This document shows positions 2,465 to 24,770 of a DNA stretch of 64,000 nt, in pieces. This DNA is from an uncultured Pseudomonadota bacterium (GTDB lineage: Bacteria; Pseudomonadota; Alphaproteobacteria; Rs-D84), in the NCBI GenBank assembly GCA_902793435.1, contig CADBDF010000001.1, positions 2,418 to 66,417 on the forward strand, written 5' to 3'. Position numbers and translations under genes: made by a program. Position 1 is the stretch's first letter. The number at the start of each line of letters is the position of its first letter. The notes under the pieces are model-generated. The model saw nothing but the letters and a program-made list of their open reading frames with translations, searched no databases and was not told the DNA's origin.

Positions 2465-2473
2465 TTTTAACCT

Positions 2474-3459: not shown

Positions 3460-3481
3460 AACATACCTTTTATAGCATAAA

Positions 3482-4798: not shown

Positions 4799-6069
4799 TG
4801 TTCAGGCACACTTTCTTTGGTTTGCCAATCAGATGCCATAATCGCACTGAATTCATCTTTGTTTGGTGTTTGTGATATTGTTGTTCGTCCCAATTTAAAG
4901 GTCGAAAAACTGGGCATTTGATTTGACGGGAAAGACCAATTACCAATCTTTAATGGTGCGGACCCAGACATTAACAATTCACCAGACACCGTTAATCCAA
5001 AATCACCATAAAACACCATGTCATTTGCACTGATATATGGTGTATGAACAGAATTCGATGATATCGCAGTAAAAGCATTGATTGTTCGATTACTGGACGA
5101 TTTTAATTTAAACAAGTTTCCAATACGCACAGAATTTTTAATTGTTGCCCTGTCGGTAATAACCGCGCCAGTATTACTAAAATTATTTCCGTTCAGGTTA
5201 TTTGCAGTTATTGTGCGAAAACCACTGATATCGCCCAACGCACGTATCGTATCAATAACCGCATCGTTGCCTTGGATATTTGCACCAGACGAAAAATACG
5301 CAGAATCCGCGATAACATCATCAGCACGAATAAATGTTGTTTCTATATTTTTAACAGACACCGTTTCGGCATTTAATGTTCCAACATTTAACAAATCTTT
5401 GCCACCCATATTTAAATTGCGCAACATCGCATTTAAATTAAATTCTGCGGCATCTTTGGCAATTTCTTCTTCTGTTTTTTTGATTGTTATTTTTTTAGGC
5501 TTTGTTTCAACAATCGAATCCGATGCCGCACGATGCAAAAAATTCGTTCTGTCCATTGTCGCGAAATTATGCGATATACGATATATTAAATTACCAGGTT
5601 TAAAATCAGGACCCGATACCGCCCAACCTGTGCCATAGGCAACACCATCATCATCAACAATCGCGGCGGTGGCCCCAATTTGACGCGCAATTTGATTTAC
5701 CCGAACACGCGAATCGGTTATGTCAAATCCAAGATAAATATCTGTTATTGTTGTGCCACGAAATTGACGCTTGTCGATAAAACCACTGGATATAATTGGC
5801 GATATTTCTTGTAAATCTGTGGCGGTCATTTGTATTTCTGCAACATCAGGCCAATCTTCTTGGTGGGTACGAACAAAATTTAATGTTGCGTCTTGCAAAT
5901 CAACAATCTGTTGTGCCACAGAAATATTTTCCAAATCATCGTATGTGTTTGTCATTTGACGATACATAAACGGTGCCGCAACCGCAGCAATTGATATCGC
6001 CAATATCACCTCTAACAACGAGGCACCACGCGAATTATCGTTAAAGATTTTTGTTTTATATACAGTCAC
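4795..6069 (-). CDS. Giant prepilin-like protein, 424 aa
   Basis: Class III signal ...SRG|ASLLEVILAISIAAVAAPF with Glu at +5. The region after the helix is paralogous to its neighbours (ENI.V..Q...LQ pattern). Confidence 0.55.
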   Translation of the reverse strand: MTVYKTKIFNDNSRGASLLEVILAISIAAVAAPFMYRQMTNTYDDLENISVAQQIVDLQDATLNFVRTHQEDWPDVAEIQMTATDLQEISPIISSGFIDKRQFRGTTITDIYLGFDITDSRVRVNQIARQIGATAAIVDDDGVAYGTGWAVSGPDFKPGNLIYRISHNFATMDRTNFLHRAASDSIVETKPKKITIKKTEEEIAKDAAEFNLNAMLRNLNMGGKDLLNVGTLNAETVSVKNIETTFIRADDVIADSAYFSSGANIQGNDAVIDTIRALGDISGFRTITANNLNGNNFSNTGAVITDRATIKNSVRIGNLFKLKSSSNRTINAFTAISSNSVHTPYISANDMVFYGDFGLTVSGELLMSGSAPLKIGNWSFPSNQMPSFSTFKLGRTTISQTPNKDEFSAIMASDWQTKESVPEQ

Positions 6070-7417: not shown

Positions 7418-7583
7418 TAAAATCCCCTATTCTCTTTTTATATGTATATAGATTAGCAACTGAAAAAAGATATTGCAATCAGTTTTAAGATGTTTTATAT
7501 TACTGTCAGTTGTTAGTTGATTATTGTTAGAAATTTATATCAACTGAAAATTCCAAAAATAAAAAATTATAAAAAGAAAAAAT

Positions 7584-7922
7584 ATGCAAAATAAAAAAAA
7601 TCAGTCTAATGTTGGTTTGATGATTCAACGGTGTCATAAATGGCGTGTGCGTCGCAAACAATTTATTGACCAAGCACGTAATACACCCGACGAAATCGAA
7701 CGTGAACGTTTATTGCAAGCGGCAGAACACTGTGTTCGTATGACAAACGCCGAACAAGAAAAAATTGATTCTATACGCGATTCAAAAGAAAAAGCCGCCG
7801 CTGTCGCAGCCGCCGAGGCCGAAATGAAGGCAGCAGATGCAAAAGACGACAATGCCGATACAGAAAAAACCGATACAGACGAAGAAATGGGCTTTCCTGA
7901 TTTTATCACTGGATTGAATTAA
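7584..7922 (+). CDS. Hypothetical small acidic protein (112 aa), uncertain
   Basis: ORF only. It sits between the pilin-operon promoter region and dnaX and has a charged C-terminus. No recognisable family. Confidence 0.25.
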   Translation: MQNKKNQSNVGLMIQRCHKWRVRRKQFIDQARNTPDEIERERLLQAAEHCVRMTNAEQEKIDSIRDSKEKAAAVAAAEAEMKAADAKDDNADTEKTDTDEEMGFPDFITGLN

Positions 7923-7992
7923 AATCGTTTTACTTTGTTGTTGAAATTTTACTTTTCTTTGGTATGCTGAAACCACATAAGGAAAGTTCAAC

Positions 7993-9528
7993 ATGGATAA
8001 TAATTATACTGTTCTGGCGCGCAAGTATCGCAGTCAAGATTTCAATTCTTTGATTGGCCAAGATGTTTTGGTTAAAACATTGACAACCGCTATCAATACT
8101 GGCCGTATCGCACACGCATATATTTTTACAGGAATTCGTGGAACTGGAAAAACCAGTACCGCACGTATTCTGGCCAAGGCATTAAATTGTTTATCGTCAG
8201 ACGGACCAACCGCAACCCCATGTGGTGTATGTGAAAACTGTCGTGCAATCGCGGCGGGTCAGCATATCGATGTTATGGAAATTGACGCGGCATCACATAC
8301 AGGTGTTGATAATATCCGCGATATTTTAGATGCCGCACAATACAGACCAACAAATGGACGATACAAAGTTTATATAATCGACGAAGTCCATATGTTATCA
8401 ACGGCGGCCTTTAATGCGTTGCTTAAAACTTTGGAAGAACCACCTGCACATGTTATATTTATTTTGGCGACCACTGAAATTCGAAAGGTTCCCGTCACCA
8501 TATTATCGCGTTGCCAACGGTTTGATTTGGTGCGCGTGCCAATTGATACATTAAAAAAACACTTCGATTGGATTGCTACACAAGAAAAAATCGAACTGAC
8601 GGACGCGGCAAATGAAATGCTGGCACGCGCGGCGGACGGCTCTGTGCGTGATGGTTTATCTTTACTGGACCAGGCAATCGCACAAACAGGTGGTCATGTC
8701 GATGAACAGGCCGTTATGGACATGTTAAAACGCGCCGACAGAAATGTTGTTGTTGATTTTATGGATACAATTTTATCTGGGGACACCAGCAAAGCATTGG
8801 AAATGACAGATTCCATTTACACAAATGGCGCAGATTTAGTTATGTTGTTGAACGATATGATGGAATGGACACATTGGGCAACACGTATGCATCCATCGGT
8901 CAATGCAGGCGATGGGCTGTCATCACCATATACCGCCGATCAACGCGAAAAAACAAAAAAAATAAATTCACGAATTTCTTTGAATACCCTTTCACGTATT
9001 TGGCAGGTTATGGTCGCAGCAGTCAGCGAAATGCAAATGTCAGGAAACCAAAAACAATGTTTTGATATGTTGGTTGTTCGTTTGATGCATATTGCCGATA
9101 TGCCATCTGTCACAGAAATTTTAAAACAAAATGCGCCCACACCAGTGGCACAACAAAAACCGGTCGAACCCGTTGCGACACCAAAGCCTGCGAACACTAT
9201 AAACACCGCAGATGAATTAGGACGTGCAATGCAGGCCGATAAGGAAATTTTATTATACACATATTTTTCTGAAAATGTTGAAGTATGCGAAATCCAAAAT
9301 GGAAAATTAAACTATTTTGACCGCAAGGGTGATAAAGATTTTGCAAATAAATTATCGGCTTGGCTGGAAAAACATACCGGCATACATTGGGATTTGATAC
9401 ACTCTGCAACCTCATGTAATGTACCCACAGCGGTCGAGCATCAAAAACAAGAATTAGAAGCTGACCCGATGATGGCAAGCGCAATGGGATTGTTCGAAGG
9501 TGCTGAAATCGTTGAAGTTTCTAAATAG
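7993..9528 (+). CDS. dnaX: DNA polymerase III subunit tau/gamma
   Basis: Walker A GIRGTGKTSTARILAKALNC, the Zn module CGVCENC and the IIDEVHML box; 511 aa. Confidence 0.9.
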   Translation: MDNNYTVLARKYRSQDFNSLIGQDVLVKTLTTAINTGRIAHAYIFTGIRGTGKTSTARILAKALNCLSSDGPTATPCGVCENCRAIAAGQHIDVMEIDAASHTGVDNIRDILDAAQYRPTNGRYKVYIIDEVHMLSTAAFNALLKTLEEPPAHVIFILATTEIRKVPVTILSRCQRFDLVRVPIDTLKKHFDWIATQEKIELTDAANEMLARAADGSVRDGLSLLDQAIAQTGGHVDEQAVMDMLKRADRNVVVDFMDTILSGDTSKALEMTDSIYTNGADLVMLLNDMMEWTHWATRMHPSVNAGDGLSSPYTADQREKTKKINSRISLNTLSRIWQVMVAAVSEMQMSGNQKQCFDMLVVRLMHIADMPSVTEILKQNAPTPVAQQKPVEPVATPKPANTINTADELGRAMQADKEILLYTYFSENVEVCEIQNGKLNYFDRKGDKDFANKLSAWLEKHTGIHWDLIHSATSCNVPTAVEHQKQELEADPMMASAMGLFEGAEIVEVSK

Positions 9529-11435: not shown

Positions 11436-11451
11436 TAAGAAACCAACAAAT

Positions 11452-11482
11452 AAAAAATACCGGCGTTTGCCGGTGTTTTTTT
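11452..11482 (+). terminator. Rho-independent terminator, member of the ACCGGCRTTTGCCGGT hairpin family
   Basis: taccggcgtttgccggtg followed by a T-run, immediately after the skp-like stop. Confidence 0.6.
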
Positions 11483-11580
11483 ATTCCGGCCAATTCCACC
11501 CCATAGCCAAACCAGACAAAAGGCGCAATTGTGTCCGCCACCCGAAGGGTGGTCATTGCTCGCTCGGGATGACAAAAATG
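11468..11580. repeat. GC-rich intergenic repeat element (AATTCCACCCC terminus; CCACCC-GAA-GGGTGG hairpin; ...GCTCGGGATGACAAAA module)
   Basis: Shares the AATTCCACCCCATAG terminus with the element at 13141. Shares the GCGCTCRGGATGACAAAA module with the region at about 1395..1495. Confidence 0.45.
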
Positions 11581-11633
11581 TATTGCATTTTTGTTAATGA
11601 TATTTATTTGATTTTATTGTGTTTTTATTGATT

Positions 11634-11838
11634 AAACCGGTCTAAAAAAAACCTAGGTTTAAAAGCAACAACTTTTTTCAAAAATTTTAAAATTCACTTT
11701 TTTGTAAAAACAATGCGTTATTCAAAATCGCAATTCGCCAGATGTGGTGTCGAAAAAAACCTAGGTTTTTTGTATATTTGTTATATAGCGAAAAAGCGCG
11801 GATTTCCGCCAGTTTATAAAGTCGAGAGAGTTGCAAAA
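11634..11838 (+). promoter_or_regulatory. Conserved leader/promoter of paralog A with two AAACCTAGGTTT palindromes (11649..11660, 11757..11768)
   Basis: Near-identical, in inverted orientation, to 24483..24735 upstream of paralog B. It is AT-rich and contains perfect 12-bp palindromes about 108 bp apart. Confidence 0.55.
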
Positions 11839-13152
11839 ATGTCTGCAAAATGTGCATTTTTTAGTGTTTTTCAAAAAATAATGGTATTTTGCTGTGCCAT
11901 ATTTTTTGGATTTGCCGACGCATTTTCCGCAAATTTGCCAAGTGGGTATACGGAATTGGAATATATCGAATCCAGTGGAACACAATATATTGATACGGGA
12001 ATAAACGCCACTGGTAACCTTGATATTCAAGCCACTGTGAAAATATTATCCATGGATTCTTCTATTTCTGGTTTGTTTGGTGCCAGGAATATAAGTAACA
12101 ATTCAACTCTTGATGCGGTTTGGTTAGGGGTTTCAACATCAAGAACTTTGTGGCTATACAATAACAATACTACTAATAACCATTTGCCTGTTTGGGACAC
12201 CAATAAATGGTATGATGTGCATACGATTAATGGTGATTTATATTTAGATGCTTCGAAAATTGCTACATACGAAACCGCGACATTTTCTGGACCGTTAATA
12301 TATTTATTCTCGAGCAATAATGGTGGTTCGATACAGAAGGGGGGTGGGAATTTTCAGTTTTCTAGTTTTAAGATAAAACAAAACAATACTCTTGTTCAAG
12401 ATTTAATTCCCGCGAAACGCGATAGTGACGGTGAAATCGGTATGTACGATACGGTCAGCAACACATTCTTTACCAACGCCGGTACTGGTACATTTACCGC
12501 CGGTCCGGAGGTGTTGAATCCATGCCGGAATTTGTTTGATTCATCAGCATTTAATACAGATGTTGGACAAACTAATACTTGGTTACATTTTCAAGTACCA
12601 AACGGCACATACACAATGAGTACTAATTTTCCTCCTCAAACAGGACAAGTATATACAAATGTTTGGGTTTTGGCAGGAAATGTAACATCTGGAATTGATA
12701 GTGCAACAAATGGTGTTTCTCTTGGCCACCCAAAAACAATAACTGTCACAGACGGCTGGTATTCAGTGGTGTACAGAAGTGGCATACCTAATATTCCGAG
12801 AAATCCAAAAGATTATAACTGGCAACTTGAACAAGGTTCAACAGCAACCGAGTATGTGCCGTATAATGCCAGTTGCCACAATACAAATGGAATCAAAATC
12901 GCAACCACTGCATATAACAGCGCGCGTTTTAGTCCTGTTATGACTGATTTAAATACTACTATTGCTACAATTCGCGATATCGTGACGAATACGATAAATC
13001 AAACCGCCGCAATAGCCAGTTTGCAAGCGGACAAGCAGACCCGCCCGGAAGATGCTTGTCCCGCCGGCAAAAAATGCCTACTGGTCGAAACCGAAGAAAA
13101 CGGCGTTATTGTCCCGCATTGGTTCCCGATAATAGAGGCACCCGAAGAATAA
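11839..13152 (+). CDS. Secreted phage-receptor-binding-protein-like protein, paralog A (alternative start 11881)
   Basis: Begins with a conserved leader ORF MSAKCAFFSVFQKI, then a copy-specific signal peptide MVFCCAIFFGFADAFSA. Central motifs YTELEYIESSGTQYIDTG and NWQLEQGSTATEYVPY. The C-terminal 90 aa (IATTAYN...CPAGKKCLLVETEENGVIVPHWFPIIEAPEE) is about 85% identical to paralog B. Confidence 0.6.
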   Translation: MSAKCAFFSVFQKIMVFCCAIFFGFADAFSANLPSGYTELEYIESSGTQYIDTGINATGNLDIQATVKILSMDSSISGLFGARNISNNSTLDAVWLGVSTSRTLWLYNNNTTNNHLPVWDTNKWYDVHTINGDLYLDASKIATYETATFSGPLIYLFSSNNGGSIQKGGGNFQFSSFKIKQNNTLVQDLIPAKRDSDGEIGMYDTVSNTFFTNAGTGTFTAGPEVLNPCRNLFDSSAFNTDVGQTNTWLHFQVPNGTYTMSTNFPPQTGQVYTNVWVLAGNVTSGIDSATNGVSLGHPKTITVTDGWYSVVYRSGIPNIPRNPKDYNWQLEQGSTATEYVPYNASCHNTNGIKIATTAYNSARFSPVMTDLNTTIATIRDIVTNTINQTAAIASLQADKQTRPEDACPAGKKCLLVETEENGVIVPHWFPIIEAPEE

Positions 13153-13205
13153 TTCCACCCCATAGGGGCGGGGGACCGCCCGTCACCAAAGGTGGCGGGT
13201 GGTGG
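13141..13205. repeat. GC-rich repeat element abutting the paralog A stop codon (AATTCCACCCC...GGTGGCGGGGG)
   Basis: Same termini as the element at 22919..23030 at the homologous position after paralog B. The internal modules differ. Confidence 0.5.
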
Positions 13206-13207
13206 CG

Positions 13208-13240
13208 GGGGTAAAAAAAACGCCCGGTTGGGCGTTTTTT
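13208..13240. terminator. Bidirectional rho-independent terminator (aaaaaaaacgcccggttgggcgtttttt)
   Basis: GC hairpin flanked by an A-run and a T-run, between convergent paralog A and rpsO. Confidence 0.6.
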
Positions 13241-13241
13241 G

Positions 13242-13514
13242 TTATTTACGCAAGCCTAATTTTTTAATCAAGGCTTCATAGTCTGCTTCGTTACGGCGTT
13301 TGATATATGCCAATAACTTTTTACGACGATTAACCATCAATAACAAACCGCGTTTGCTGTGTTCGTCTTTGTGGTTGTTTTTCATGTGTTCTGTTAAATT
13401 ACGGATACGTTCGGTCAAAACTGCAACCTGGGTTGCCGCGCTGCCGCCGTTATCGTTTTCAGAAACTTTGAATTCTTTAATTAATTCAGTTTTTTTTGTT
13501 TTTGTAATGGACAT
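13242..13514 (-). CDS. rpsO: 30S ribosomal protein S15
   Basis: 90 aa MSITKTKK...LGLRK, typical S15. Confidence 0.9.
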   Translation of the reverse strand: MSITKTKKTELIKEFKVSENDNGGSAATQVAVLTERIRNLTEHMKNNHKDEHSKRGLLLMVNRRKKLLAYIKRRNEADYEALIKKLGLRK

Positions 13515-13526
13515 TACATTTCCTTT

Positions 13527-14408
13527 TTATATTGTGCGTTTTGGACGCAATTGTTTATCTTGTACAAAACCGATTCCAACCAAGGTATCATCGTTATACA
13601 CGCGTACCAAACCGTCCGGTTCTGTGGTTTTGATAAATCCACCATGCCTATAAAGTTCGGTGTCTTTATCGTCCAGATTTAAAACCGGAATGCCCCCCAG
13701 TCCTAAATCTATTGGCATCAAAAATTCATTGATGTCGCCATACATTTTAACCATATTTTCCAAAAAATCAAGTGTGACAGCATTTTTTAAATCAAAACCA
13801 TTTGTGGAAATTCGGCGAATTGCGGTGACTGTCGCAATGGTTTTACAATAATTTGCAATGTCGCGCGCCAAAGACCGAACATAAGTCCCGCGCCCACATT
13901 TTACATAAAAATTCCAATTTTCACCGTCAAAGCCATCATACCTTAAATCAAAAATATGAATTTTGCGTGGTGCAATATCAATGTTTTCGCCATTTCGCGC
14001 AATTTTATACGCACGCACCCCATCAACATGTACCGCACTGTAAATTGGTGGAACCTGCATAACATCACCAATAAAATGTGTCACAGAATCGTTTATTTGC
14101 GTGTCTGTGGGAATTTTGTTGTTTTGTTGTGTGATTGTGCCGGTTATGTCTAAACTGTCTGTGCTGATGCCAAATTTGCATGAAAACAGATATTCTTTTG
14201 TGCCATCGTTTGCAGATTCTACAAATGGAATCATTTTTGTTGCGTCGCCAATCGCGATTGGTAAAACCCCAGTCGCCATTGGGTCCAATGTTCCAATATG
14301 CCCAGATTTTTTATATCCAAACAAACGCGCCACGCGTGATGATGCACTGCGACTGAATAAACCCGATGATTTGTCTAAAATAATCCAACCAGACATTTTA
14401 TTCCCCAA
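13527..14408 (-). CDS. truB: tRNA pseudouridine(55) synthase
   Basis: TruB motif GTLDPMATGVLPIAIG; 293 aa; directly upstream of rpsO. Confidence 0.85.
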   Translation of the reverse strand: MGNKMSGWIILDKSSGLFSRSASSRVARLFGYKKSGHIGTLDPMATGVLPIAIGDATKMIPFVESANDGTKEYLFSCKFGISTDSLDITGTITQQNNKIPTDTQINDSVTHFIGDVMQVPPIYSAVHVDGVRAYKIARNGENIDIAPRKIHIFDLRYDGFDGENWNFYVKCGRGTYVRSLARDIANYCKTIATVTAIRRISTNGFDLKNAVTLDFLENMVKMYGDINEFLMPIDLGLGGIPVLNLDDKDTELYRHGGFIKTTEPDGLVRVYNDDTLVGIGFVQDKQLRPKRTI

Positions 14409-16923
14409 ACAAATTTAATTGTGGCGAATTTGATTCGTTTTTATGTTTTGGCGCACTTTTGGCTTTTTCAATTTTGATTTCATTTTTAACAGTTTTGTTT
14501 TCGCCACTTTCCAATCCCGCCAACACAGATTCTGCGCGTGCAACAACCGATTCTGGCATGCCCGCCATTTTTGCAACATGAATACCGTATGAACGATTCG
14601 CAACACCATTGACGATTTTATGCATAAATATAATTTCATTATTGTATTCACGCACATCAATTGTCAGGCATGAAACCATATTTAAAACACCGCCATTATC
14701 ACCCGACAAAGCGGTTAATTCATGATAATGTGTTGCAAATAAAGTGCGTGGTGCCATATTGTTTAAAAATTCTAATACTGATTGAGCAATTGCCATACCG
14801 TCGTATGTTGCGGTTCCGCGACCGATTTCATCAAATATAATAAAAGACCGATTTGTTGCGCGACGCAAAATATTTGCGGTCTCACTCATTTCTACCATAA
14901 ATGTCGATTGACCAGCCGCCAAATTATCGGACGCGCCAACGCGACTGAATAACTGGTCACAAATTCCAATTGTTGCAGATTTTGCTGGTACAAAAGACCC
15001 CAGGTGCGCCAACACAACAATCAACGCATTTTGACGCAGATATGTTGATTTTCCCGCCATATTTGGACCGGTAATAAGGGCAATTTTTTTATTTGATAAA
15101 TCGCAATCATTTTTTACAAAGTTATCACCATGTTTGCGTAATACGGCCTCTATTACTGGGTGGCGACCGCCAACGATGCAAAAATCTGGACCTGTTGTCA
15201 TTTCTGGACACGCCCAATCGTATTCAATCGCGACAAATGTCAAAGCCGACCAAACATCTAAATCCGCCAACAAATCAGCTGTTGCCAATAAATCGTCGGC
15301 AACATCACTGATTTTCGAAATAAATTTGTTAATGATTTCTTCTTCTATGGCAGCGGCCTTGTCGGACGCATTGCGAATATCGTTATCCAATTCAATCAGT
15401 TGTGATGTTGTAAAACGAACATTACCCGCCAGGGTTTGACGATGTATAAATCCAGATTCCGGTTTCATCATATCATCGGCGCGTGTTGCCGGAACCTCTA
15501 TAAAATATCCCAATATATTATTGAATTTTATTTTTAATGTATGAATCCCGGTTTGTTCAATATATTGTGACTGCAAACCTGCAACGGTATTGCGTGCGCC
15601 ATGTGATAATTCGCGCATTTTATCCAACGATAAATCAAACCCATCACGAATAATATTCCCGTCACGAAAAAATGTTGGCAATTCATCATTTAATGCACGA
15701 TTTAATTGCAAACCTAATTCGTCATGAGTTTTTATTGCGTATAACTTTTTTGCGAAATCGTCATCTAATGCATGGGACATCATTTTTAAATTTGGCAAAT
15801 TTATAATAAAATCGCGAACATGCGACATATCGCGTGGCGTGCCGCGACCCGCGGACAACCGCGCCAAAGAACGTCCAACATCCGGCATAGATGACAATTC
15901 ATGCGCAACATTTATTAAAACATTTCGATTAGAAATAAAATGATTTATATGTTTTTGACGCAGTTTTATTTCATCAATACTGCCCGACAAAGCACGCATA
16001 TACGCACGTAATTTTCGCGCCCCCGCGGCAGTTTTTGTTTTATCCAACACATCGACCAAACATGCACCACCGGCATTTATTGGTGCATCTATTTCCAAAC
16101 TTTTCCATGTTGCAGAATCGATTAATAATTGTGCATCGTTTTTGAACTGTCGTGGCGCACGAAAAGTTGTTGTCACACCACGACCCGCATTAAATAAATA
16201 CCCAGCCAACAAACAAATTGCGCTGTCTGCGGGGTCTGTTTTTATATCGCCGACAACACCACCAAAAACAGTTTCAACAATTTGTGAAATGTCGGAACGA
16301 ATATACAATTTTTCAAATACAGGTGTTGTTTTGAACACTGTGCGCATGTGAAATATAGTGTCGTTTTCCGCATGCGAAGATGGAAATATAACCTCGGCGG
16401 GATTTAATCGCACCAAATCATCAATTAAATCATTTGTTGCGCCAACAAAAAATTCCCCGGTTGAAATATCACAACCTGCGACATCAAATCCACCATTTTG
16501 CATTGGCACAATCGCAACCAAAAAATTTGCAGACTTTGGATTTAATAAATTTTCATCGGTCAGTGTCCCAGGTGTTAAAACACGAACAATTTTGCGTTCG
16601 ATATATTTATGTCCGCGTTCCTTTGCTTGTGCTGGGGTTTCCATTTGTTCAACCAATGCAACTTTGAATCCAGATTTTACCAATCGACCAAAATAATTAT
16701 CTGCCGCATGCCATGGAATACCGCACATTGGGATATTTGCGCCTGTTTCATCGGTTCCGCGTTTGGTTAAAACCAGACTCAAAGCTTCGCTGATGGTTTT
16801 GGCATCATCAAAGAAAGCCTCGTAAAAATCGCCCAAACGGAACAGCAACAAAGCCTCTGGGTTTTCGGCCTTCATATCCATATATTGTTGCATCACCGGT
16901 GAAAGTTTTTCTTTTGCCGCCAC
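14398..16923 (-). CDS. mutS: DNA mismatch repair protein MutS
   Basis: 841 aa with TPVMQQY, Walker A GPNMAGKSTYLRQ and the C-terminal ATPase domain. Overlaps truB by 11 bp. Confidence 0.9.
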   Translation of the reverse strand: MAAKEKLSPVMQQYMDMKAENPEALLLFRLGDFYEAFFDDAKTISEALSLVLTKRGTDETGANIPMCGIPWHAADNYFGRLVKSGFKVALVEQMETPAQAKERGHKYIERKIVRVLTPGTLTDENLLNPKSANFLVAIVPMQNGGFDVAGCDISTGEFFVGATNDLIDDLVRLNPAEVIFPSSHAENDTIFHMRTVFKTTPVFEKLYIRSDISQIVETVFGGVVGDIKTDPADSAICLLAGYLFNAGRGVTTTFRAPRQFKNDAQLLIDSATWKSLEIDAPINAGGACLVDVLDKTKTAAGARKLRAYMRALSGSIDEIKLRQKHINHFISNRNVLINVAHELSSMPDVGRSLARLSAGRGTPRDMSHVRDFIINLPNLKMMSHALDDDFAKKLYAIKTHDELGLQLNRALNDELPTFFRDGNIIRDGFDLSLDKMRELSHGARNTVAGLQSQYIEQTGIHTLKIKFNNILGYFIEVPATRADDMMKPESGFIHRQTLAGNVRFTTSQLIELDNDIRNASDKAAAIEEEIINKFISKISDVADDLLATADLLADLDVWSALTFVAIEYDWACPEMTTGPDFCIVGGRHPVIEAVLRKHGDNFVKNDCDLSNKKIALITGPNMAGKSTYLRQNALIVVLAHLGSFVPAKSATIGICDQLFSRVGASDNLAAGQSTFMVEMSETANILRRATNRSFIIFDEIGRGTATYDGMAIAQSVLEFLNNMAPRTLFATHYHELTALSGDNGGVLNMVSCLTIDVREYNNEIIFMHKIVNGVANRSYGIHVAKMAGMPESVVARAESVLAGLESGENKTVKNEIKIEKAKSAPKHKNESNSPQLNLFGE

Positions 16924-16937
16924 GATTTTACACCTAT

Positions 16938-17135
16938 TTATTCAGTAATTTTCAAAGTTTCGATTTTCAATTCGGCTTCTTTTAACAATTGTTCGCAGTA
17001 AGCCTTTAATTTAATACCTTGTTCGTATGCCGCCACAGAATCAGCCAATGGCAATTCACCAGATTCCATTTTTTTAACCAATTCGGTTAATTGTTTATAT
17101 GCTTCTTCAAAGGTTAATTTTTTTTCTTCTGCCAT
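16938..17135 (-). CDS. xseB: Exodeoxyribonuclease VII small subunit
   Basis: 65 aa helical MAEEKKLTFEEAYKQLTELVKKMESGELPL. Confidence 0.7.
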   Translation of the reverse strand: MAEEKKLTFEEAYKQLTELVKKMESGELPLADSVAAYEQGIKLKAYCEQLLKEAELKIETLKITE

Positions 17136-17147
17136 TTTCTTTCCTTT

Positions 17148-18581
17148 TTATAAATTGATATCCCATGTTGTACCATTTGGCGTATCTTTTAAAACGATAC
17201 CTTTGTCCAACAACTTGGTGCGCACGTTGTCCGCCGTTGCCCAATCTTTATTTTGTTTTGCCACTGCACGTTCATTGATATATTTTTCAATATCGCCAAC
17301 AGTTATATTGGAATTTTTTAATACAGTCGATTTTATATTGTTGATATATTCATCAGGATTTTTTTGTAATATATTCAACACACCGAACAATTCAACGATT
17401 TTATTTCCAATGCGTTTTAAATCATATTCGGTTGATTTTTTTGCCAATTCAGTATTGATAAAATTAAACCAACCAAACGCAGATGCAATAACTTCCAAAG
17501 TATTAAAATTATCGTTCATTGCGCGTTCAAATTCGTTTTTAATTTCATCGATTTTTGCGTTTGTTTTGTCGGCATCTGCGCCTGAAAAATCGCGTTCATT
17601 TAATGCCATCAGCCCAGAATACATTTTATAAATGTGTCGGCGTGATTCTGGAAACAAAGAATCTGTGATATCAATATCTGCCGAATATGTATTTCGCAAC
17701 AAAGCAAATCGTATTGTATCTGCATCGTATTTATCTAAAACATCTTTTAACAAAATACCGTTGCCAAGTGATTTGCTCATTTTTTGACCATTGATTTTGA
17801 CCAATCCGCAATGAATCCAATATTTTGCAAATTGTTTTCCGGTAAGTGATTCTGTTTGTGCAATTTCGTTTTCGTGGTGTGGAAAAACCAAATCACGACC
17901 ACCACCATGAATATCAATCTGTTCGCCCAAATATTTTAAATTCATCGCACTGCATTCAATGTGCCAGCCCGGTCGTCCCATACCCCATGGCGATTTCCAA
18001 GCAATTTCACCAGGTTTTGCAGATTTCCATAATGCAAAATCTAAATCATTTTGTTTGCCTGGTTCTGTTTCTTTGCGAACGCCAGTATCATTTTTATCAA
18101 CCTGGATATGAGATAACTTGCCGTATTCATTAAAACTGGATAACTTAAAATAAACATCGCCGAACTGCGAAACATAGGCATGCCCAGAATCAATCAATTT
18201 TTGCACAAAGTTTATAATATCATCAATACAATGTGTTGCACGTGCCATAATAGTTGGTTTTTCATTACCCAATTTATCCATTTCAATATCGGTCTGTGCT
18301 ATATATTTTTCAGCAAACTCCACAGGGTCTTCATTTGCGCGTGCTGCATTGGCAATAATTTTATCATCGACATCGGTATAGTTTCTAACATATTTAACAT
18401 CATATCCCAAATAACGCAGGTATCGTGTAATAACATCAAATACGACTGATTGATATGCATGCCCAATATGTGCATCGCCCGACACAGTAATACCACATGC
18501 GTACATATTAACGATTCCAGGGTTTAGTGGGACAAAATCTTGCTTTGTTCTGGACAAAACATTATAAACTTTCAATGCCAT
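17148..18581 (-). CDS. cysS: Cysteine--tRNA ligase
   Basis: HIGH motif (HIGHAYQ), KMSKS and Zn-binding cysteines; 477 aa. Confidence 0.9.
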   Translation of the reverse strand: MALKVYNVLSRTKQDFVPLNPGIVNMYACGITVSGDAHIGHAYQSVVFDVITRYLRYLGYDVKYVRNYTDVDDKIIANAARANEDPVEFAEKYIAQTDIEMDKLGNEKPTIMARATHCIDDIINFVQKLIDSGHAYVSQFGDVYFKLSSFNEYGKLSHIQVDKNDTGVRKETEPGKQNDLDFALWKSAKPGEIAWKSPWGMGRPGWHIECSAMNLKYLGEQIDIHGGGRDLVFPHHENEIAQTESLTGKQFAKYWIHCGLVKINGQKMSKSLGNGILLKDVLDKYDADTIRFALLRNTYSADIDITDSLFPESRRHIYKMYSGLMALNERDFSGADADKTNAKIDEIKNEFERAMNDNFNTLEVIASAFGWFNFINTELAKKSTEYDLKRIGNKIVELFGVLNILQKNPDEYINNIKSTVLKNSNITVGDIEKYINERAVAKQNKDWATADNVRTKLLDKGIVLKDTPNGTTWDINL

Positions 18582-18641
18582 GACAAATTCCTTTATATGC
18601 AGGATTCAAAATACACAATAAAAACCGAACTTTCAACAAGT

Positions 18642-19058
18642 TTAATTAAATTTTTTATCAAAAAATTTGCAGATAATATCTTTGAAATCTTGGTGCATGT
18701 CTAAATGTTCGGTGTCTTGACGATTTACCCATTTATAATCGGTGTGTTCAGGCGATAAAACAACATCACCTGAAACATATTTTGCGACGAACAAATACCC
18801 AAAAAATTGAGTGTCTTTGTTGTATGCAATACCCGTCCAACCAAATACGGGGTGGGGCATTGCATCTATGTTTAGTTTAACTTCTTCGTAAATTTCGCGT
18901 GTAATAGCCGTTTGAAAATTTTCACCAAATTCAATTTTTCCACCGGGTAAATCCCACATGCCCGGGAACACAGGTGTTTCTTTGTTTCGTTTTAACACCA
19001 AAATATTTCCCTGTGCATTATATATAATTATTTTTACGACACCCCGAAAATTTGCCAT
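18642..19058 (-). CDS. NUDIX hydrolase
   Basis: Nudix box GGKIEFGENFQTAITREIYEEVKL. Confidence 0.7.
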   Translation of the reverse strand: MANFRGVVKIIIYNAQGNILVLKRNKETPVFPGMWDLPGGKIEFGENFQTAITREIYEEVKLNIDAMPHPVFGWTGIAYNKDTQFFGYLFVAKYVSGDVVLSPEHTDYKWVNRQDTEHLDMHQDFKDIICKFFDKKFN

Positions 19059-19080
19059 TTTATAAATCCATTATTTACGA

Positions 19081-19110
19081 AAAAACACCGACACTTGCCG
19101 GTGTTTTTAT
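19081..19110. terminator. Bidirectional terminator hairpin (aaaaacaccgacacttgccggtgtttttat), variant of the CCGG-family hairpin
   Basis: Inverted repeat with flanking A and T tracts downstream of mreB. Confidence 0.5.
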
Positions 19111-19121
19111 ACGATTTTGTA

Positions 19122-20174
<1,053 letters not shown>

Positions 20175-20290
20175 TCAATCCTTATCTTTTTGTCGTGCAA
20201 ACTATAAAACGATATATGTGAAAAATCAAGCGTCCTAAACAAAAAATGTTTTTATTTGATTTCTTGGATTTTTGGGGCATAATACCCGTC

Positions 20291-20725
20291 ATGAGAAATA
20301 CAATAAAAAATCATAAAGATTTTATAACCCCGCGCGATTTTCCATATGCGGTAATGGATTGGTTTTCTGTGCATACCAAATTGGCAAAATATCCAGATGA
20401 TGCGCGTTATGGACTGACTGTGGCAAAACGTAATTTTCGTTATGCGGTTCAACGCAATCGTGCGAAGCGTCTGTTGCGTGATTGGATTGCGTTTGCAAAT
20501 CGTTATATGTGTCCAGATTTAGATTATATTTTCTTTGCGCGTCCTGGTATATTAAACGACGATGTCACGCGTGATGCCGGCCGTCAAGCGATGGTGCGCG
20601 CATTAAAAGATATTCGTCACAGAAACGATTTTCGTAAAAATGGATACCAAAAAAAACCAAAAACTAATCCCCAAAACAAATCTCAAAATGCGTGTGATAA
20701 AACAAAAAAATCCAACGAAAAGTAA
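20291..20725 (+). CDS. rnpA: RNase P protein component (start chosen at [11 protein letters not shown]; the ORF extends upstream to 20246)
   Basis: RnpA-like basic core ...[27 protein letters not shown], with a Lys-rich C-terminal tail overlapping yidD. No rpmH was found upstream. Confidence 0.7.
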
Positions 20726-20762
20726 TTCGTTTTTAACCAACGTTGGTGTGCGTTTGGTAAAA

Positions 20763-20948
20763 ATGTATCAATCGTGTATATCGCCATTTATTGGCGGTCG
20801 ATGTGCCTGCCGTTTTGTTCCCTCATGCAGTGAATACACCAAAATTGCAATTGAAAGATACGGATTGTTTCGTGGAATTTGGTTGGGTATAAACCGAATA
20901 TCGCGTTGTCGTCCGGGTGGTGGGTTTGGATATGACCCGGTACCTTGA
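20763..20948 (+). CDS. yidD: Membrane protein insertion efficiency factor YidD
   Basis: [25 protein letters not shown]... has the characteristic Cys pattern, and the gene sits in the canonical position after rnpA. The ORF-track start at 20640 is likely too far upstream. Confidence 0.75.
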
Positions 20949-21029
20949 CTTTTTGCGTATGTGTGGTAAAATTTAATTAAAACACTTGAAAAATATATTG
21001 GTGTAATAGAGTTTATAAAAGGATAAAAA

Positions 21030-21470
21030 ATGTCATTTCGTGCGACCGTTGAATCTATGTCAAAAATCATGGACGATATGGGAATAACAGAATTGGATTT
21101 GGAACGTCAATTTTTATTTGGCGTATATCGCAAACATATTCATTTGTCCAAAGGAACCGCTGTTGCGATGCCAACTTTTTCTGCGGATAAAACAATTAAA
21201 AATTCAACGACTTCTGCGGCATCTGCGCCTGAATATGCAAATGCGCTAAAATCCCCAATGGTTGGTGTTGTATATTTGGCAACCGAACCGGGTGCAAAAC
21301 CGTTTGTTCGTGTTGGCGATACGGTGCATGCTGGCGATACAGTCGCCTTGGTCGAGGCTATGAAAACATTTAATCCAATCAAGGCAACAACCGATGGTGT
21401 CGTCAAAGAAATTTTGGTGACTGATGCCCAGGCGGTTGAATTTGACCAGCCTTTGATTGTTATAGAGTAA
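21030..21470 (+). CDS. accB: Biotin carboxyl carrier protein of acetyl-CoA carboxylase
   Basis: C-terminal biotinyl domain EAMKTFNPI (AMK biotinylation motif). Confidence 0.85.
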   Translation: MSFRATVESMSKIMDDMGITELDLERQFLFGVYRKHIHLSKGTAVAMPTFSADKTIKNSTTSAASAPEYANALKSPMVGVVYLATEPGAKPFVRVGDTVHAGDTVALVEAMKTFNPIKATTDGVVKEILVTDAQAVEFDQPLIVIE

Positions 21471-21476
21471 TTTAAT

Positions 21477-22871
21477 ATGTCACAAATAAAAAAAGTTTTA
21501 ATCGCAAATCGTGGTGAAATTGCATTGCGTATAATTCGTGCGTGTCGTGATATGGGTATTCGCACAGTTGCGGTTTATTCGACCGCTGATAAAAATGCGA
21601 TGCACACACAATTGGCTGATGAAAGTGTATGTATTGGACCTGCGCCATCACGTGATTCTTACCTTAATGAATCTGCAATTTTAACTGCGGCGTTGCTGAC
21701 AAATGCGGACGCAATCCACCCAGGATATGGTTTTCTATCGGAAAATGCCGGATTTGCGCGCAAGGTTGAATCCCATGGTATGATTTGGATTGGACCATCA
21801 CCTGATATGATTGTTCGTATGGGGGACAAGGTTAATGCAAAAAAAACGGCTATTGCGTGTGGTTTGCCGGTTGTGCCGGGGTCAAGTGGTGCGGTAAATT
21901 CTTTGGCTGATGCCAAAGCATGCGCGGAAAAAATTGGTTATCCTGTAATGTTAAAGGCTGCATCTGGTGGGGGTGGTCGCGGTATTCGTGCGGTTTTTAA
22001 ACCCGAAGATTTAGCCGAGGCTTTTGCCACAACTCGTGCCGAGGCAAAATCCAGTTTTGGTGACGAAACATTATACATGGAAAAATTATTGTTGCACCCA
22101 CGTCATATTGAATTTCAAATATTGGGTGACAAACATGGAAATGTTGTTGTATTGGGCGAACGCGATTGTTCGTTGCAACGCAAAAATCAAAAGTTAATCG
22201 AAGAATGTCCTGCGGCGATTTTATCACAAAAACAACGCGATGATATGATTGAAATTTGCAAAACTGCCGCTAAAAAAATGGGGTATTTCAGTACAGGAAC
22301 TTTTGAGTTTATGTATGAAGACGGCAAATTTTATTTCTTGGAAACAAATACCAGACTCCAAGTTGAACACCCGGTCACAGAAATGGTTTATGGCATAGAT
22401 TTGGTGCGCGAACAGATTCGTATTGCGGCGGGCGAAAGGTTGGGCTATTCCCAGGCGAATATCGTGCCACATGGCCACGCGATTGAATTTCGTATCAATG
22501 CCGAAGACCCTGAAACATTTATTCCAAACCCAGGGACGATATCATTGTATGCGCCATCTGGTGGATTAGGCGTGCGTGTGGATTCCGCCGTCTATACTGG
22601 ATATACGATTCCACCGACATACGATTCCATGATTGCGAAATTGATTGTGCATAACACGTCACGTGCGACATGTATAATGCGTGCAACGCGTGCGTTGGAA
22701 GAATTTGTAATCGAAGGTGTTAAAACCACAATTCCATTACATAAAAAATTGTTAAACAATCGTGATTTCAGGCAACTGAATTTTGATAATCATTGGTTGG
22801 AAAATTATTTGTCATCTGCGCCAAATCCAGATGATGAAATAACCCCAACCGAAGAAAATTCACAAGAATAA
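21477..22871 (+). CDS. accC: Biotin carboxylase
   Basis: ATP-grasp fold with KVLIANRGEIALRIIRAC and MLKASGGGGGRG. Confidence 0.9.
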   Translation: MSQIKKVLIANRGEIALRIIRACRDMGIRTVAVYSTADKNAMHTQLADESVCIGPAPSRDSYLNESAILTAALLTNADAIHPGYGFLSENAGFARKVESHGMIWIGPSPDMIVRMGDKVNAKKTAIACGLPVVPGSSGAVNSLADAKACAEKIGYPVMLKAASGGGGRGIRAVFKPEDLAEAFATTRAEAKSSFGDETLYMEKLLLHPRHIEFQILGDKHGNVVVLGERDCSLQRKNQKLIEECPAAILSQKQRDDMIEICKTAAKKMGYFSTGTFEFMYEDGKFYFLETNTRLQVEHPVTEMVYGIDLVREQIRIAAGERLGYSQANIVPHGHAIEFRINAEDPETFIPNPGTISLYAPSGGLGVRVDSAVYTGYTIPPTYDSMIAKLIVHNTSRATCIMRATRALEEFVIEGVKTTIPLHKKLLNNRDFRQLNFDNHWLENYLSSAPNPDDEITPTEENSQE

Positions 22872-22887
22872 ATAAAAAATACACAAT

Positions 22888-22919
22888 AAAAACACCGGCA
22901 TTTGCCGGTGTTTTTTTTT
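22888..22919. terminator. Terminator hairpin aaaaacaccggcatttgccggtgttttttttt (canonical ACCGGCATTTGCCGGT family member)
   Basis: Perfect 7-bp stem with a TTT loop and flanking A and T runs. Serves convergent accC and paralog B. Confidence 0.65.
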
Positions 22920-23030
22920 ACCCCCGCCACCCGCTTTCGCTTCGCTTCAGCGAGGTTCCCCGCCCCAAGCGTCACCCACAAAATTTTACAAATTTTGCGG
23001 GGCCCGATTGGGGTGGAATTATTATTCGGG
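22919..23030. repeat. GC-rich mosaic repeat element, full-length type (CCCCCGCCACCCGCTTTCGCTTCGCTTCAGCGAGG...AT-rich module...GGGGTGGAATT)
   Basis: About 90% identical to 33638..33752 and to the shorter 63428..63495. Abuts the stop codon of paralog B. Confidence 0.6.
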
Positions 23031-24362
23031 TGCCTCTATAATTGGATACCAGTGCGGGACAATAACACCGTTTTCCTCGGTTTCGACCAATAAACATTTT
23101 TTGCCGGCGGGGCATTGTTCGTCCGGGCGGGTCTGCTTGTCCGCTTGCAAACTGGCTATCGCGGCGGTTTGATTTATCGTTTTTGTGACTATTTCGCGAA
23201 TTGTTGCAATCGTAGTATTTAAATCAGTCACCACTGGATTAAATTGCGCAGTATTATATGCCGTTGTCGCGATTTTGATACCCAATTCCAGGCTATTCGA
23301 CACAAGTGTTTGACCGTTTTGCAACAAAGTACGAATCGTTGTGGCAATCGTTCCATTATTCTGTATAACCGGCGCGGTGGTCATGGTCTGTCCCGCAACA
23401 GATTCCGTTGTCGGTTCTGCAAGTGGGTATATTACGATTACAGGTGTTCCCGCTGCATACTGGTCGGCAATATATCTTTTCCAATCGGTAACTGTTGGAA
23501 AATCAGTTACAATATTATAGAAGTTTAAATCTGCACTGCCATCTATTTCGATTTTAGACGACACAGATTCTGTTATATTGCTTAATGGCACAGTTTTTGC
23601 TCTTGCAATACTTCTAAGGACCATAGTCGTATACCCACTCCTCCAAGGACTCCAATTCTCCTTTCCATTAAACACCATGACACCGACTTTGCGGGTAATG
23701 ACGCCAGTGTTGATATTTTGTTCATCGGCATAGTCACCAACCGCAAACAAAGTTTCCACATTCGCGGAATGATTCGCACTGTCGCGCACAGTCTCCCCCG
23801 CCCCTTCGGTGTAAATTGAACCGTATGGATGATACGTCGTTGCGGTTGAACCTTTTTCAAACTGTGCATTTGCATAAGTTGTACTCGCATTACCGCCATC
23901 ACGTCCTGTGATTCTAATAAATGCGACACCAGACGGAATATTTATCTGATATGCACTTGATGCTTGTGCCAAGACAGATGATACAAAATTTTTATTATTA
24001 TCATAAAAACAATGATATGCTGGAACACCTAGTGAACTCGTAAAACCAGATAAATAATATGTTGTATTTTGCTGAACAGGTATATAGTCAGAATATCCCC
24101 ATACGATAGACCCTGTTTTTGTTCCGTCTTGAGCCAAATAATCGCCATGTGTCCAAGTGCTTACTTTAAACAAATTCTTACTCAGTTTTATCGCCCCATT
24201 ATTGGTCACGATATTGACGGGATTGCTGGGGGTTGGGGTGCCGGATTGCTCGGTTGCACCAACGACGGTGACACTGGATATCGATTCGCCATCGGCGTAT
24301 ACAGGGGATGCGGTAATTAGCACCGTTAACGCAAGCAGTAAAGATGATAAAAACTTTTTCAT
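23022..24362 (-). CDS. Secreted phage-receptor-binding-protein-like protein, paralog B (start at MKKFLSSLLLALTVLITASPVYA)
   Basis: Own signal peptide and an unrelated central region containing AQFEKGSTATTYHPY. The C-terminal IATTAYN...CPAGKKCLLVETEENGVIVPHWYPIIEAPE is conserved with paralog A. The ORF-track extension to 24488 reads through a repeat element and is unlikely to be translated. Confidence 0.6.
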   Translation of the reverse strand: MKKFLSSLLLALTVLITASPVYADGESISSVTVVGATEQSGTPTPSNPVNIVTNNGAIKLSKNLFKVSTWTHGDYLAQDGTKTGSIVWGYSDYIPVQQNTTYYLSGFTSSLGVPAYHCFYDNNKNFVSSVLAQASSAYQINIPSGVAFIRITGRDGGNASTTYANAQFEKGSTATTYHPYGSIYTEGAGETVRDSANHSANVETLFAVGDYADEQNINTGVITRKVGVMVFNGKENWSPWRSGYTTMVLRSIARAKTVPLSNITESVSSKIEIDGSADLNFYNIVTDFPTVTDWKRYIADQYAAGTPVIVIYPLAEPTTESVAGQTMTTAPVIQNNGTIATTIRTLLQNGQTLVSNSLELGIKIATTAYNTAQFNPVVTDLNTTIATIREIVTKTINQTAAIASLQADKQTRPDEQCPAGKKCLLVETEENGVIVPHWYPIIEAPE

Positions 24363-24482
24363 ACTCCCCCGTTTTCTTTTCCTTTGCCTATAACCCCCTC
24401 CGTCACTCTCGTTGCGTTGCAACTTGGTGACCCGCCTCCCCGGTCGCGCTTGCGCGCTGGGGCGGAATTCTGGACGCACAAA
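24363..24482. repeat. GC-rich repeat element inserted between the conserved leader and the paralog B start codon (…GGGGCGGAATTCTGG terminus)
   Basis: Shares CCCCCTCC and GGGGCGGAATT modules with the other elements. Absent from the homologous position in copy A. Truncates the conserved MSAK leader ORF (24359..24601). Confidence 0.5.
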
Positions 24483-24735
24483 AACCACCAGATTTTTTGT
24501 AAAACACCAAAAAATGCACGTTTTGCAGACATTTTCGCAACTCTCTCGATTTTATAAACTGGCGGAAATCCGCACCTTTTTGCCATGTTTTGATTATACA
24601 AAAAACCTAGGTTTTTTTCGACACCACATCTGGCAAATTGCGATTTTGAATAACGTATTGTTTTTACAAAAAAAGTGAATTTTAAAATTTTTGAAAAAAG
24701 TTGTTGCTTTTAAACCTAGGTTTTTTTTAGACCGG
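24483..24735 (-). promoter_or_regulatory. Conserved leader/promoter of paralog B (inverted copy of 11634..11880), with AAACCTAGGTTT palindromes at 24603..24614 and 24712..24723
   Basis: Reverse complement matches copy A almost base-for-base, including the leader ORF start MSAK(R)AFFGVLQKI. Confidence 0.55.
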
Positions 24736-24770
24736 TTTAATAAATAAAAACAGGCTATATTTAATTGGTT

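Follow-up and report, generated by a model that had tools for sequence, protein, structure and literature searches.

Two convergent genes with shared ends flank a block of housekeeping genes

The DNA studied here is a stretch of 64,000 nucleotides (hereafter the window) from an uncultured alphaproteobacterium of the order Rs-D84 (GenBank assembly GCA_902793435.1, contig CADBDF010000001.1, positions 2,418 to 66,417 of the forward strand). Two genes, named A and B in this work, lie in inverted orientation at both sides of a housekeeping block, in which rpsO, truB, mutS, xseB, cysS, a Nudix hydrolase gene and mreB are encoded by the minus strand, and rnpA, yidD, accB and accC by the plus strand (Table 1). 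A first-pass annotation of this DNA had described near-identical inverted ends around the housekeeping genes, and had proposed that A and B share a leader and a C-terminal module with its 3' flank, but have unrelated centres. Both statements were borne out, the former by two repeat pairs obtained with blastn and the latter by nucleotide and amino acid alignments. The 3' repeat pair corresponds to the last 86 residues of proteins A and B (88% amino acid identity, E value 2e-50), whereas the other ~350 residues are unrelated, bar a short QxExGSTATxYxPY motif. Downstream of the stop codons, AATAATTCCACCCCA and GGTGGCGGGGGTAAAAAAAA together with a hairpin terminator occur in A and B alike.

Table 1. 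Features of the inverted gene pair and of its surroundings (positions are those of the window).
Feature	Position	Strand	Description	Basis
REP-like copy 1	11492..11560	+	between the OmpH terminator and leader A; exact AATTCCACCCC head	
5' repeat pair	11620-11879 vs 24752-24492	inverted	261 nt, 92.7% identity, longest perfect run 67 nt	repeat search, blastn
Leader A (predicted promoter region and short 5' untranslated region)	11620..11838	+	92.7% identity to leader B	promoter-like hexamers
Leader A palindromes	11649-11660 and 11757-11768		12 bp, AAACCTAGGTTT, perfect	
Leader A hexamers	11750-11755; 11773-11778	+	TCGAAA (-35-like); TATATT (-10)	
Gene A	11839..13152	+	437 aa	sequence, AlphaFold model
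A, predicted signal peptide	11839-11931	+	Sec type, MSAKCAFFSVFQKIMVFCCAIFFGFADAFS/A	
A, predicted beta-sandwich	11932-12522	+	concanavalin-A/LamG/CBM40-like	AlphaFold model, Foldseek
A, predicted second beta domain	12523-12888	+		AlphaFold model
A, conserved helix and beta-hairpin module	12889-13149	+		alignment with B, model
3' repeat pair	12889-13162 vs 23282-23009	inverted	274 nt, 86% identity, longest perfect run 38 nt	repeat search, blastn
REP-like copy 2	13151-13214	+	3' of A	
A hairpin terminator	13215-13240	+	after the REP-like element; whole A 3' flank 13151..13240	
Housekeeping block	13242..22871	mixed	flipped in some relatives	NCBIfam and Pfam on called genes
B bidirectional hairpin terminator	22885-22918		after the REP-like element	
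REP-like copy 3	23020-22925	-	3' of B; whole B 3' flank 22881..23021	
Gene B	23022..24362	-	446 aa	sequence, AlphaFold model
B, conserved helix and beta-hairpin module	23282-23025	-		alignment with A, model
B, linker	23396-23283	-		model
B, predicted second domain	23816-23397	-		model
B, predicted CBM-like sandwich	24290-23817	-	relative of a phage tail-fibre domain	model, tblastn
B, predicted signal peptide	24362-24291	-	MKKFLSSLLLALTVLITASPVYA/D	
REP-like copy 4 (GC-rich insertion, ~85 nt)	24385..24469	-	between leader B and the B start codon, within the B 5' untranslated region	
Leader B	24492..24752	-	palindromes 24603-24614 and 24712-24723; TG-extended -10 TGTATAAT	
REP-like copy 5	33625-33740		same variant as the B 3' flank	blastn
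REP-like copy 6	63433-63493			

The start of gene A is most likely the ATG at 11839. A longer open reading frame (ORF) starting at 11713, called as 479 aa, was rejected as too long at its 5' end, since copy B does not keep this frame open. Many homologues of A begin at a conserved MSAKRAFF... sequence, and a Shine-Dalgarno-like GAGAGAG precedes ATG 11839. The start of B at 24362 sits behind a GGGGGAG ribosome-binding site. With A and B starting at these positions, the 5' repeat is almost wholly non-coding, and gene callers systematically extend the 5' ends of genes of this kind into the leader. In B, the ancestral start (ATG 24531, minus strand) now opens a 57-codon upstream ORF (24361-24531), which runs through the REP-like insertion and ends in an ATGA that overlaps the B start codon; translational coupling is possible at this overlap.

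The AlphaFold models of A (mean pLDDT 74) and B (mean pLDDT 63) were each built as monomers from alignments of 41 sequences. That of A comprises a signal helix, a beta-sandwich (residues 37-211), a second beta domain (residues 246-332) and a 44-residue helix followed by a beta-hairpin. The pLDDT values were 80-96 across most of residues 31-220, and ~61-64 at residues 81-120. Foldseek comparison of the sandwich with the PDB retrieved sialidase lectin domains from trypanosomes and bacteria, as well as the CBM40 of R. gnavus (best E value 1.2e-5; range 1e-5 to 1e-3, probability ~1.0, ~140-170 aligned columns). Judged by the model, the head of A has a concanavalin A-like lectin/LamG/CBM40 fold. 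The Foldseek matches of B were weak and CBM4/CBM32-like (best E value ~1e-3). Residues ~28-180 of B matched tail-fibre proteins of Klebsiella, Streptococcus and Staphylococcus phages (tblastn E value 1e-7, 31-36% identity), a similarity that identifies its first domain as a homologue of a phage tail-fibre domain. No match to phage records was obtained for A. Pfam and PHROG assigned neither A nor B to a family, and gave one insignificant PHROG match.

A and B belong to a large lineage-specific family

Database searches yielded 2144 homologues for A and 807 for B. Among the matches listed with their source, all came from uncultured Alphaproteobacteria or Proteobacteria represented by metagenome-assembled genomes (MAGs) of gut and rumen, often with several on one contig. 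The helix and hairpin module shared by A and B is near-invariant in more than 150 proteins, with the consensus IKIATTAYN...TINQTAAIA.LQA.KQTRP...CPAGKKCLLVE..G..PHW..IIE. It is either C-terminal or internal, and in the latter case (about half of the family) another lectin-like head follows. This module may form a trimerising stalk, and it is called the stalk module below. A predicted long helix and then a short, Trp-bearing beta-hairpin close the fibre-like protein, a layout that recalls the coiled coil and C-terminal foldon of T4 fibritin. Unlike fibritin, the module carries a predicted disulfide loop (CPAGKKC), is internal in many members and has no sequence match in the PDB, against which its profile gave chance coiled-coil matches only (E value >0.6). 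In one protein of 2075 aa (P0301), the second half of the stalk, with the hairpin part KQTRP...CPAGKKCLLVE...PHW, is matched 16 times in tandem.

The stalk profile detected 338 clusters at 50% identity among 1.84 billion representatives. Since 320 of them scored below 1e-10, the family is sharply bounded and lineage-specific. The GTDB species representatives that carry the module are RUG14746, Ca. Enterousia onthequi, RUG13827, UBA3635 and RUG13375. At least 25 copies, de-duplicated by contig coordinate, are present in the ~1 Mb genome of RUG14746, on both strands and with a spacing of 5-200 kb; in Ca. Enterousia onthequi ~40 module hits were counted in fetched loci, overlapping loci not being de-duplicated. 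The genomes of the order Rs-D84 (relatives of Ca. Enterousia) are mostly <1 Mb (PMC12306168), so that with at least 25 copies the family amounts to several percent of the genome. Published analyses of Rs-D84 mention only 'hypothetical membrane proteins' (PMC12306168). The first-pass annotation had named a search for more copies of the leader and the C-terminal module as a check, and such copies were found, both in RUG14746 and throughout the library of clusters. The silent cassettes that it had envisaged were not seen: the retrieved family proteins are full-length and have signal peptides, and no promoterless truncated arrays were observed among them.

The inverted repeats around the housekeeping block are, hence, the standard 5' and 3' modules of the family plus a REP-like 3' element. 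A and B are one of many dispersed pairs of paralogs, and the bracketing of essential genes looks incidental. The family, for which there is no Pfam or Rfam model, is large and undescribed; judged by the signal peptides and the models, it comprises secreted, lectin-like fibre proteins of gut and rumen Alphaproteobacteria with reduced genomes. By analogy of fold, its members may be glycan-binding fibres (adhesins), either secreted or exposed at the surface. Rs-D84 bacteria such as Ca. Enterousia are widespread in animal guts, and the family points to attachment to glycans, either of the host or of microbes, as a central part of their biology; its heads, stalk and common promoter provide concrete experimental handles.

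The stalk modules of A and B differ by 0.62 at synonymous sites (dS) and by 0.06 at non-synonymous sites (dN), which indicates purifying selection on the protein and no recent homogenisation. The non-coding leader (92.7% identity) is far better conserved than the synonymous sites of these modules. Its conservation agrees with a regulatory role that depends on the sequence, with gene conversion, or with both.

The leader has the features of a common promoter

Each leader contains twin perfect palindromes spaced 108-109 bp, the downstream one being placed between the -35 and -10 hexamers. Throughout the window the sequence AAACCTAGGTTT is confined to leaders A and B, with 8 strand matches where chance predicts 0.03, and four of the five CCTAGG sites also fall within them. 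A small hairpin, GCGGATTTCCGC, lies in leader A 5' of ATG 11839, and the TG-extended -10 is present in B and in most paralogs. Rfam searches over the whole window gave tRNAs only, and nothing in the leaders or in the REP-like elements. From this arrangement we infer a promoter of the sigma-70 type, in which two operators would bind a dimeric regulator, with a 5' untranslated region of ~55 nt downstream of it.

The leader was found upstream of 7 of the 23 assessable family copies in RUG14746 and of 16 of 23 in Ca. Enterousia onthequi. In the latter the identity is only ~70-77%, yet both palindromes are kept. It also precedes paralogs in other genomes and genera. A comparison of homopolymer tracts in the leader, as a possible source of phase variation, showed only T6/T7 length differences upstream of the -35 hexamer. 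Sub-segments of the leader are mosaic across loci; for instance, the OmpH-side leader of one related locus (L079) shows 95.5% identity to leader B of the window and 91.6% to leader A.

The housekeeping block is found in both orientations in related genomes

In order to compare the block among relatives, loci (designated L and a number) were fetched from independent metagenomes and MAGs by means of the MreB and S15 proteins of the window, which are identical in many public assemblies. The common flanks are dnaX-OmpA-OmpH at one side and TPR-RluA-like-RsmE-TraG at the other. The order OmpH-family gene-rpsO...accC-family gene-TPR was present in the window and in L001/L002, L072/L081, L079, L080 and L071 (TPR side only). 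The order OmpH-(113 aa)-(125 aa)-accC...rpsO-family gene X (273/274 aa)-TPR was present in L069 (a 183-kb contig), L070 and RUG14746 (L005). In these three genomes the block is thus reversed relative to the OmpA/OmpH and TPR/RluA-like/RsmE flanks, which are the same as in the window; this is the outcome that the first-pass annotation had anticipated for relatives if inversion occurs. A third junction was found in L082, where rpsO is followed by a family gene and by other neighbours (AhpC, GH108, PFOR). In a neighbour-joining tree of 3.5 kb (mutS-cysS), the inverted genomes form one subclade nested among window-type genomes, from which it diverges by ~3%, the window itself being ~6-7% away. This nesting indicates that the inverted state is derived. 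In all probability it goes back to a single old event and is now a polymorphism at approximately the species level. The same 10-kb block of essential genes thus occurs in both orientations at roughly species-level diversity, a natural example of paralogs restructuring a small chromosome.

The site of crossover could be approached in L070. The second half of its REP-like element is 100% identical to the accC-side type (B of the window, and L071) and 62-63% identical to the rpsO-side variants, whereas the terminator next to it shows 95% identity to the rpsO-side type. This combination places the crossover at the GGTGGCGGGGGTAAAAAAA motif, within the 3'-flank homology to which the first-pass annotation had drawn attention. 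The 3' flank of L070 is the only clean recombinant junction. In L069 the 3'-flank REP-like element has a deletion and the stalk module is nearer to that of L079, a pattern that shows additional conversion or mosaicism. In the inverted relatives the TPR-side leader is contiguous with its flank through both palindromes, and the breakpoint lies at the 3' ends of the genes. As judged from comparison of the loci, homologous recombination has acted at the repeats shared by A and B on an evolutionary scale.

Two other candidate boundaries were rejected. The blastn boundary at position 12892 of the window was not accepted as an orthology or crossover boundary, since the rpsO-adjacent stalk modules are mosaic and show high synonymous divergence from A. 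Similarly, the REP-like element of L069 was not accepted as chimeric, because window-type genomes of clade 2 carry the same long variant on the rpsO side.

A separate observation concerns mutS, which lies inside the invertible block. In L080 (3480-3482) and L084 an AAA-to-TAA change creates a nonsense codon at mutS codon 297, and without MutS the repeats of 86-93% identity would recombine more readily. A split mutS in L072/L081 turned out to be an artefact of a run of N.

The central regions turn over at fixed loci

The product of the rpsO-adjacent family gene has 437 aa in the window (479 as called) and 331, 428, 474, 477, 481 or 273/274 aa in other strains; that of the TPR-side gene has 446, 438 or 273/274 aa across strains. 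Segments of one protein also have different closest partners. The second domain of A is 85% identical to residues 213-330 of P0004 and 84% to residues 407-519 of P0047, while its first domain reaches at most 51% identity to any protein; the second domain of B is 92% identical to P0122 and 87% to P0132. Since these partners differ, and match at different positions, the bodies of A and B are mosaic, and head-swapping between conserved ends over evolutionary time is well supported by these alignments. The family genes also settle at new sites. In L071 (11201-12412, 403 aa) and L072 (2954-3835, 293 aa) one of them replaces the Nudix gene between mreB and cysS, evidence that the family enters new intergenic positions delimited by common hairpin terminators. 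The variable central cassettes of the first-pass annotation hence held up in part: the bodies do differ from strain to strain at the same locus and are mosaic, but no A/B chimera was found among 5.8 billion database proteins, the best non-self matches being 56% (A) and 73% (B).

A recombination-prone family is preferred to a dedicated switch

We favour, with a probability of about 0.7, the reading that A and B belong to a lineage-specific family of adhesin-like paralogs that is prone to recombination, and are not part of a programmed inversion or cassette switch. According to it, A and B would be dispersed members of a large family of Sec-exported proteins with variable lectin- or CBM-like heads on a conserved stalk. 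A sizeable subset of the family, A and B included, would be driven by the common promoter-leader of ~220 nt, with the twin AAACCTAGGTTT palindromes as operators of a common regulator. Since A and B are convergent, homologous recombination between their 3' modules and flanks, presumably dependent on RecA, would invert the housekeeping block. Recombination that uses leader and stalk as flanks would replace or shuffle the central heads, so that a different gene comes to occupy the same locus in each strain. Inversion and head exchange would thus be both a by-product and a driver of the diversification of the family, and not an on/off switch.

Several observations argue for this reading. The family consists of complete paralogs with conserved ends and divergent middles that differ at the same locus by strain, and the flanks are conserved around a hypervariable centre. 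The segment boundaries are homology tracts of 260-280 nt and not short specific sites, and the breakpoints do not coincide with the palindromes. NCBIfam and Pfam scans of the ORFs across the window detected no recombinase of the serine or tyrosine class, in agreement with the first-pass annotation. Besides, whichever way the block is turned, A and B each retain a full set of promoter-leader, ribosome-binding site and signal peptide, so that neither inversion nor exchange would switch expression. With no recombinase found in the window, no silent cassettes, no A/B chimeras and both genes complete for expression, the dedicated cassette system of the antigenic- or host-range-variation type that had initially been proposed is not supported.

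Other observations weigh against the preferred reading. The models of A and B are of moderate confidence (pLDDT 74 and 63) and monomeric, the fold matches of B are weak, and the function of the family is suggested by fold analogy only. The stalk modules of L069 and L070 differ, and the crossover point is consequently not uniquely defined. At the OmpH side the inverted genomes have no family gene, but a small membrane-protein gene (113 aa) instead; as the reciprocal junction is not preserved, at least two events must separate both states. Assemblies identical to the window show only the window junctions or stop at the repeats, and exact look-ups of P0001 and P0121 retrieved only short contigs that repeat those junctions. 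The present-day frequency of inversion may be very low, as A and B share only short tracts of perfect identity (38 and 67 nt) and the window has an intact mutS. The lack of A/B chimeras in the database counts in the same direction.

In a more far-reaching reading, which we consider doubtful, the family would be a purpose-built combinatorial repertoire, with 25 or more lectin-fibre genes maintained in genomes of <1 Mb. Its members would carry standardised handles, namely the twin-palindrome promoter-leader on the 5' side and the stalk with the REP-like element on the 3' side. Through these, many paralogs would come under one regulator, perhaps with selective or exclusive expression, and head-swapping and local inversions would be frequent. 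If it were true, an uncultured, partner-dependent gut lineage would possess a rapidly changeable glycan-binding surface, and the mutS nonsense allele of one strain could raise recombination between diverged handles.

Less likely is programmed antigenic or host-range variation by gene conversion, in which leader and stalk would serve as handles for some 25 paralogs, as in msp2/p44 of Anaplasma or pilE/pilS of Neisseria. The hypervariable mosaic centres between conserved flanks, with a different body at the same locus in every strain, would be expected of such a system, and so would the mosaic sub-segments of the leader (as in L079, nearer to leader B than to leader A) and a family that fills several percent of a ~1 Mb genome (PMC12306168). 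However, there is no single expression site, because the paralogs have their own promoter-leaders, or other 5' regions, and signal peptides; neither truncated promoterless cassette arrays nor A/B chimeras were seen, and the stalks of A and B (dS ~0.6) have not been recently converted.

A phage origin was also considered, according to which A and B would be the receptor-binding fibres of a phage-derived particle (a prophage, a tailocin or an element like a gene-transfer agent) and not cell surface proteins. The first domain of B is related to phage tail-fibre domains, the helix and hairpin layout is fibritin-like and the LExGSTATxYxPY motif is one that we take to be phage-fibre-like. In addition, a viral contig of IMG/VR (L067, IMGVR_UViG_3300028888_005254, positions 245-8087) carries a family gene with a signal peptide directly upstream of an endolysin-like gene, next to genes for a T7-like scaffold, a major capsid protein, tail tube proteins A and B and a terminase fragment; a portal gene was not detected in its scanned ORFs. 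This contig may represent either the remnant of a podovirus-like element or a phage with a host-type fibre gene. Nevertheless, it is the only one of 2.9 million viral contigs in which the stalk module occurs, all inspected family proteins have an N-terminal signal peptide and lack a virion-attachment domain, A has no phage match, no PHROG family was assigned and the copies are dispersed among housekeeping genes. All this makes the phage-particle explanation improbable.

Even less credit is given to a site-specific invertible element of the shufflon or Gin/Hin type, with a recombinase that acts on short sites such as AAACCTAGGTTT. The perfect 12-bp palindromes are indeed paired in both leaders and occur nowhere else in the window, and a PilV/Shufflon_N-like gene is located 7 kb away. 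Still, no recombinase is present among the window ORFs, the breakpoint lies at the 3' ends of the genes and not in the leaders, and inversion would leave the linkage between promoter and gene unchanged. Finally, an assembly artefact at the inverted repeats is very hard to sustain as the source of the two orientations: contigs often break at repeats, as does that of L074 (100% identity to the window over 13148-22949, ending at both repeats), but each orientation was found in at least three independent assemblies from different studies, orientation follows the sequence phylogeny, and lineage-specific neighbours such as the 273/274-aa gene X and the 113-aa gene tell the two states apart.

Comparison with known recombining systems

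The closest parallel to the recombination-prone family preferred here is provided by the Hop adhesins of H. pylori (babA/babB/babC and sabA/sabB). These are promoter-equipped paralogs with near-identical ends and divergent lectin-like middles, among which inter-locus recombination and gene conversion generate swaps and chimeras. Both cases involve full-length paralogs with conserved 5' and 3' ends, and a different paralog may be found at the same locus depending on the strain. The two families have no relation in sequence or fold. The conserved 3' part is a predicted helix and hairpin stalk here and a beta-barrel anchor in the Hop proteins. The Rs-D84 family also has many more copies (at least 25), and what is conserved at its 5' side is for the most part non-coding, a promoter that contains twin palindromes.

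With Anaplasma msp2/p44 and Neisseria pilE/pilS the family shares a hypervariable centre between conserved segments that guide recombination, and Anaplasma is likewise an alphaproteobacterium with a reduced genome and a multigene family. Those systems use one expression site and promoterless truncated donors, whereas the genes described here are complete and have their own 5' regions. In the G segment of Mu, the C segment of P1 and the R64 shufflon, inversion also takes place between repeats within receptor-binding fibre genes, and the head of B is related to phage fibres. They depend, however, on a dedicated recombinase of the serine or tyrosine class that acts at short sites, and combine a constant N-terminus with interchangeable C-terminal parts. 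In the locus studied here the constant part is C-terminal, the segment consists of 10 kb of housekeeping genes and inversion would leave the expression of A and B unaffected. As for mechanism, the inversions between tufA and tufB or between rRNA operons of Salmonella are comparable, since RecA-type recombination of inverted paralogs flips a part of the chromosome and is polymorphic among strains; the repeats involved here are, in contrast, only 86-93% identical, ~270 nt long and part of a diversifying family.

Repetitive elements and other genes of the window

The REP-like (repetitive extragenic palindromic-like) element is GC-rich and hairpin-forming, with a head AATTCCRCCCC, a tail GGGTGG(C/A)GGGGG / GGGTGGCGGGGG and internal hairpins that vary. 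Six exact AATTCCRCCCC heads are present in the window, in a genome of 40% GC, and four of the six flank or interrupt A or B. Like REP sequences and Rickettsia palindromic elements, these are short, GC-rich, structured intergenic elements, here in an AT-rich alphaproteobacterial genome. They differ in having no Rfam match and no RAYT-type transposase in the window. Near-identical palindromic hairpin terminators, AAAAACACCGGC.TTTGCCGGTGTTTTT, were also observed between convergent genes at 11446-11487, 19074-19115 and 22881-22922, and these recurrent terminators constitute extra small inverted and direct repeats around the block.

ARAGORN predicted a tRNA-Asp (anticodon ATC) at 18624-18714, which covers the beginning of the nudix gene and the spacer between nudix and cysS; as it lacks Rfam support, it is probably a false positive. 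At 3482-4798 (minus strand) a 438-aa protein matched Pfam Shufflon_N, the PilV constant region (E value 1e-6, just above the gathering score). The ORFs around it in the region 1511-7417 (minus strand), of 158, 170, 424 and 453 aa, had no Pfam match, and the region may encode minor pilins or the tip of a type IVb pilus. In the related genome of L068, secretin and TcpQ genes were found beside a family gene. A TraG/VirD4-like coupling protein of type IV secretion is encoded at 27348-29621 (plus strand), adjoining the TPR-side flank, and homologues of CagX and TrbI are present in L068 (1302-5308). Together, these genes indicate that a type IV secretion system is retained in a genome of <1 Mb.

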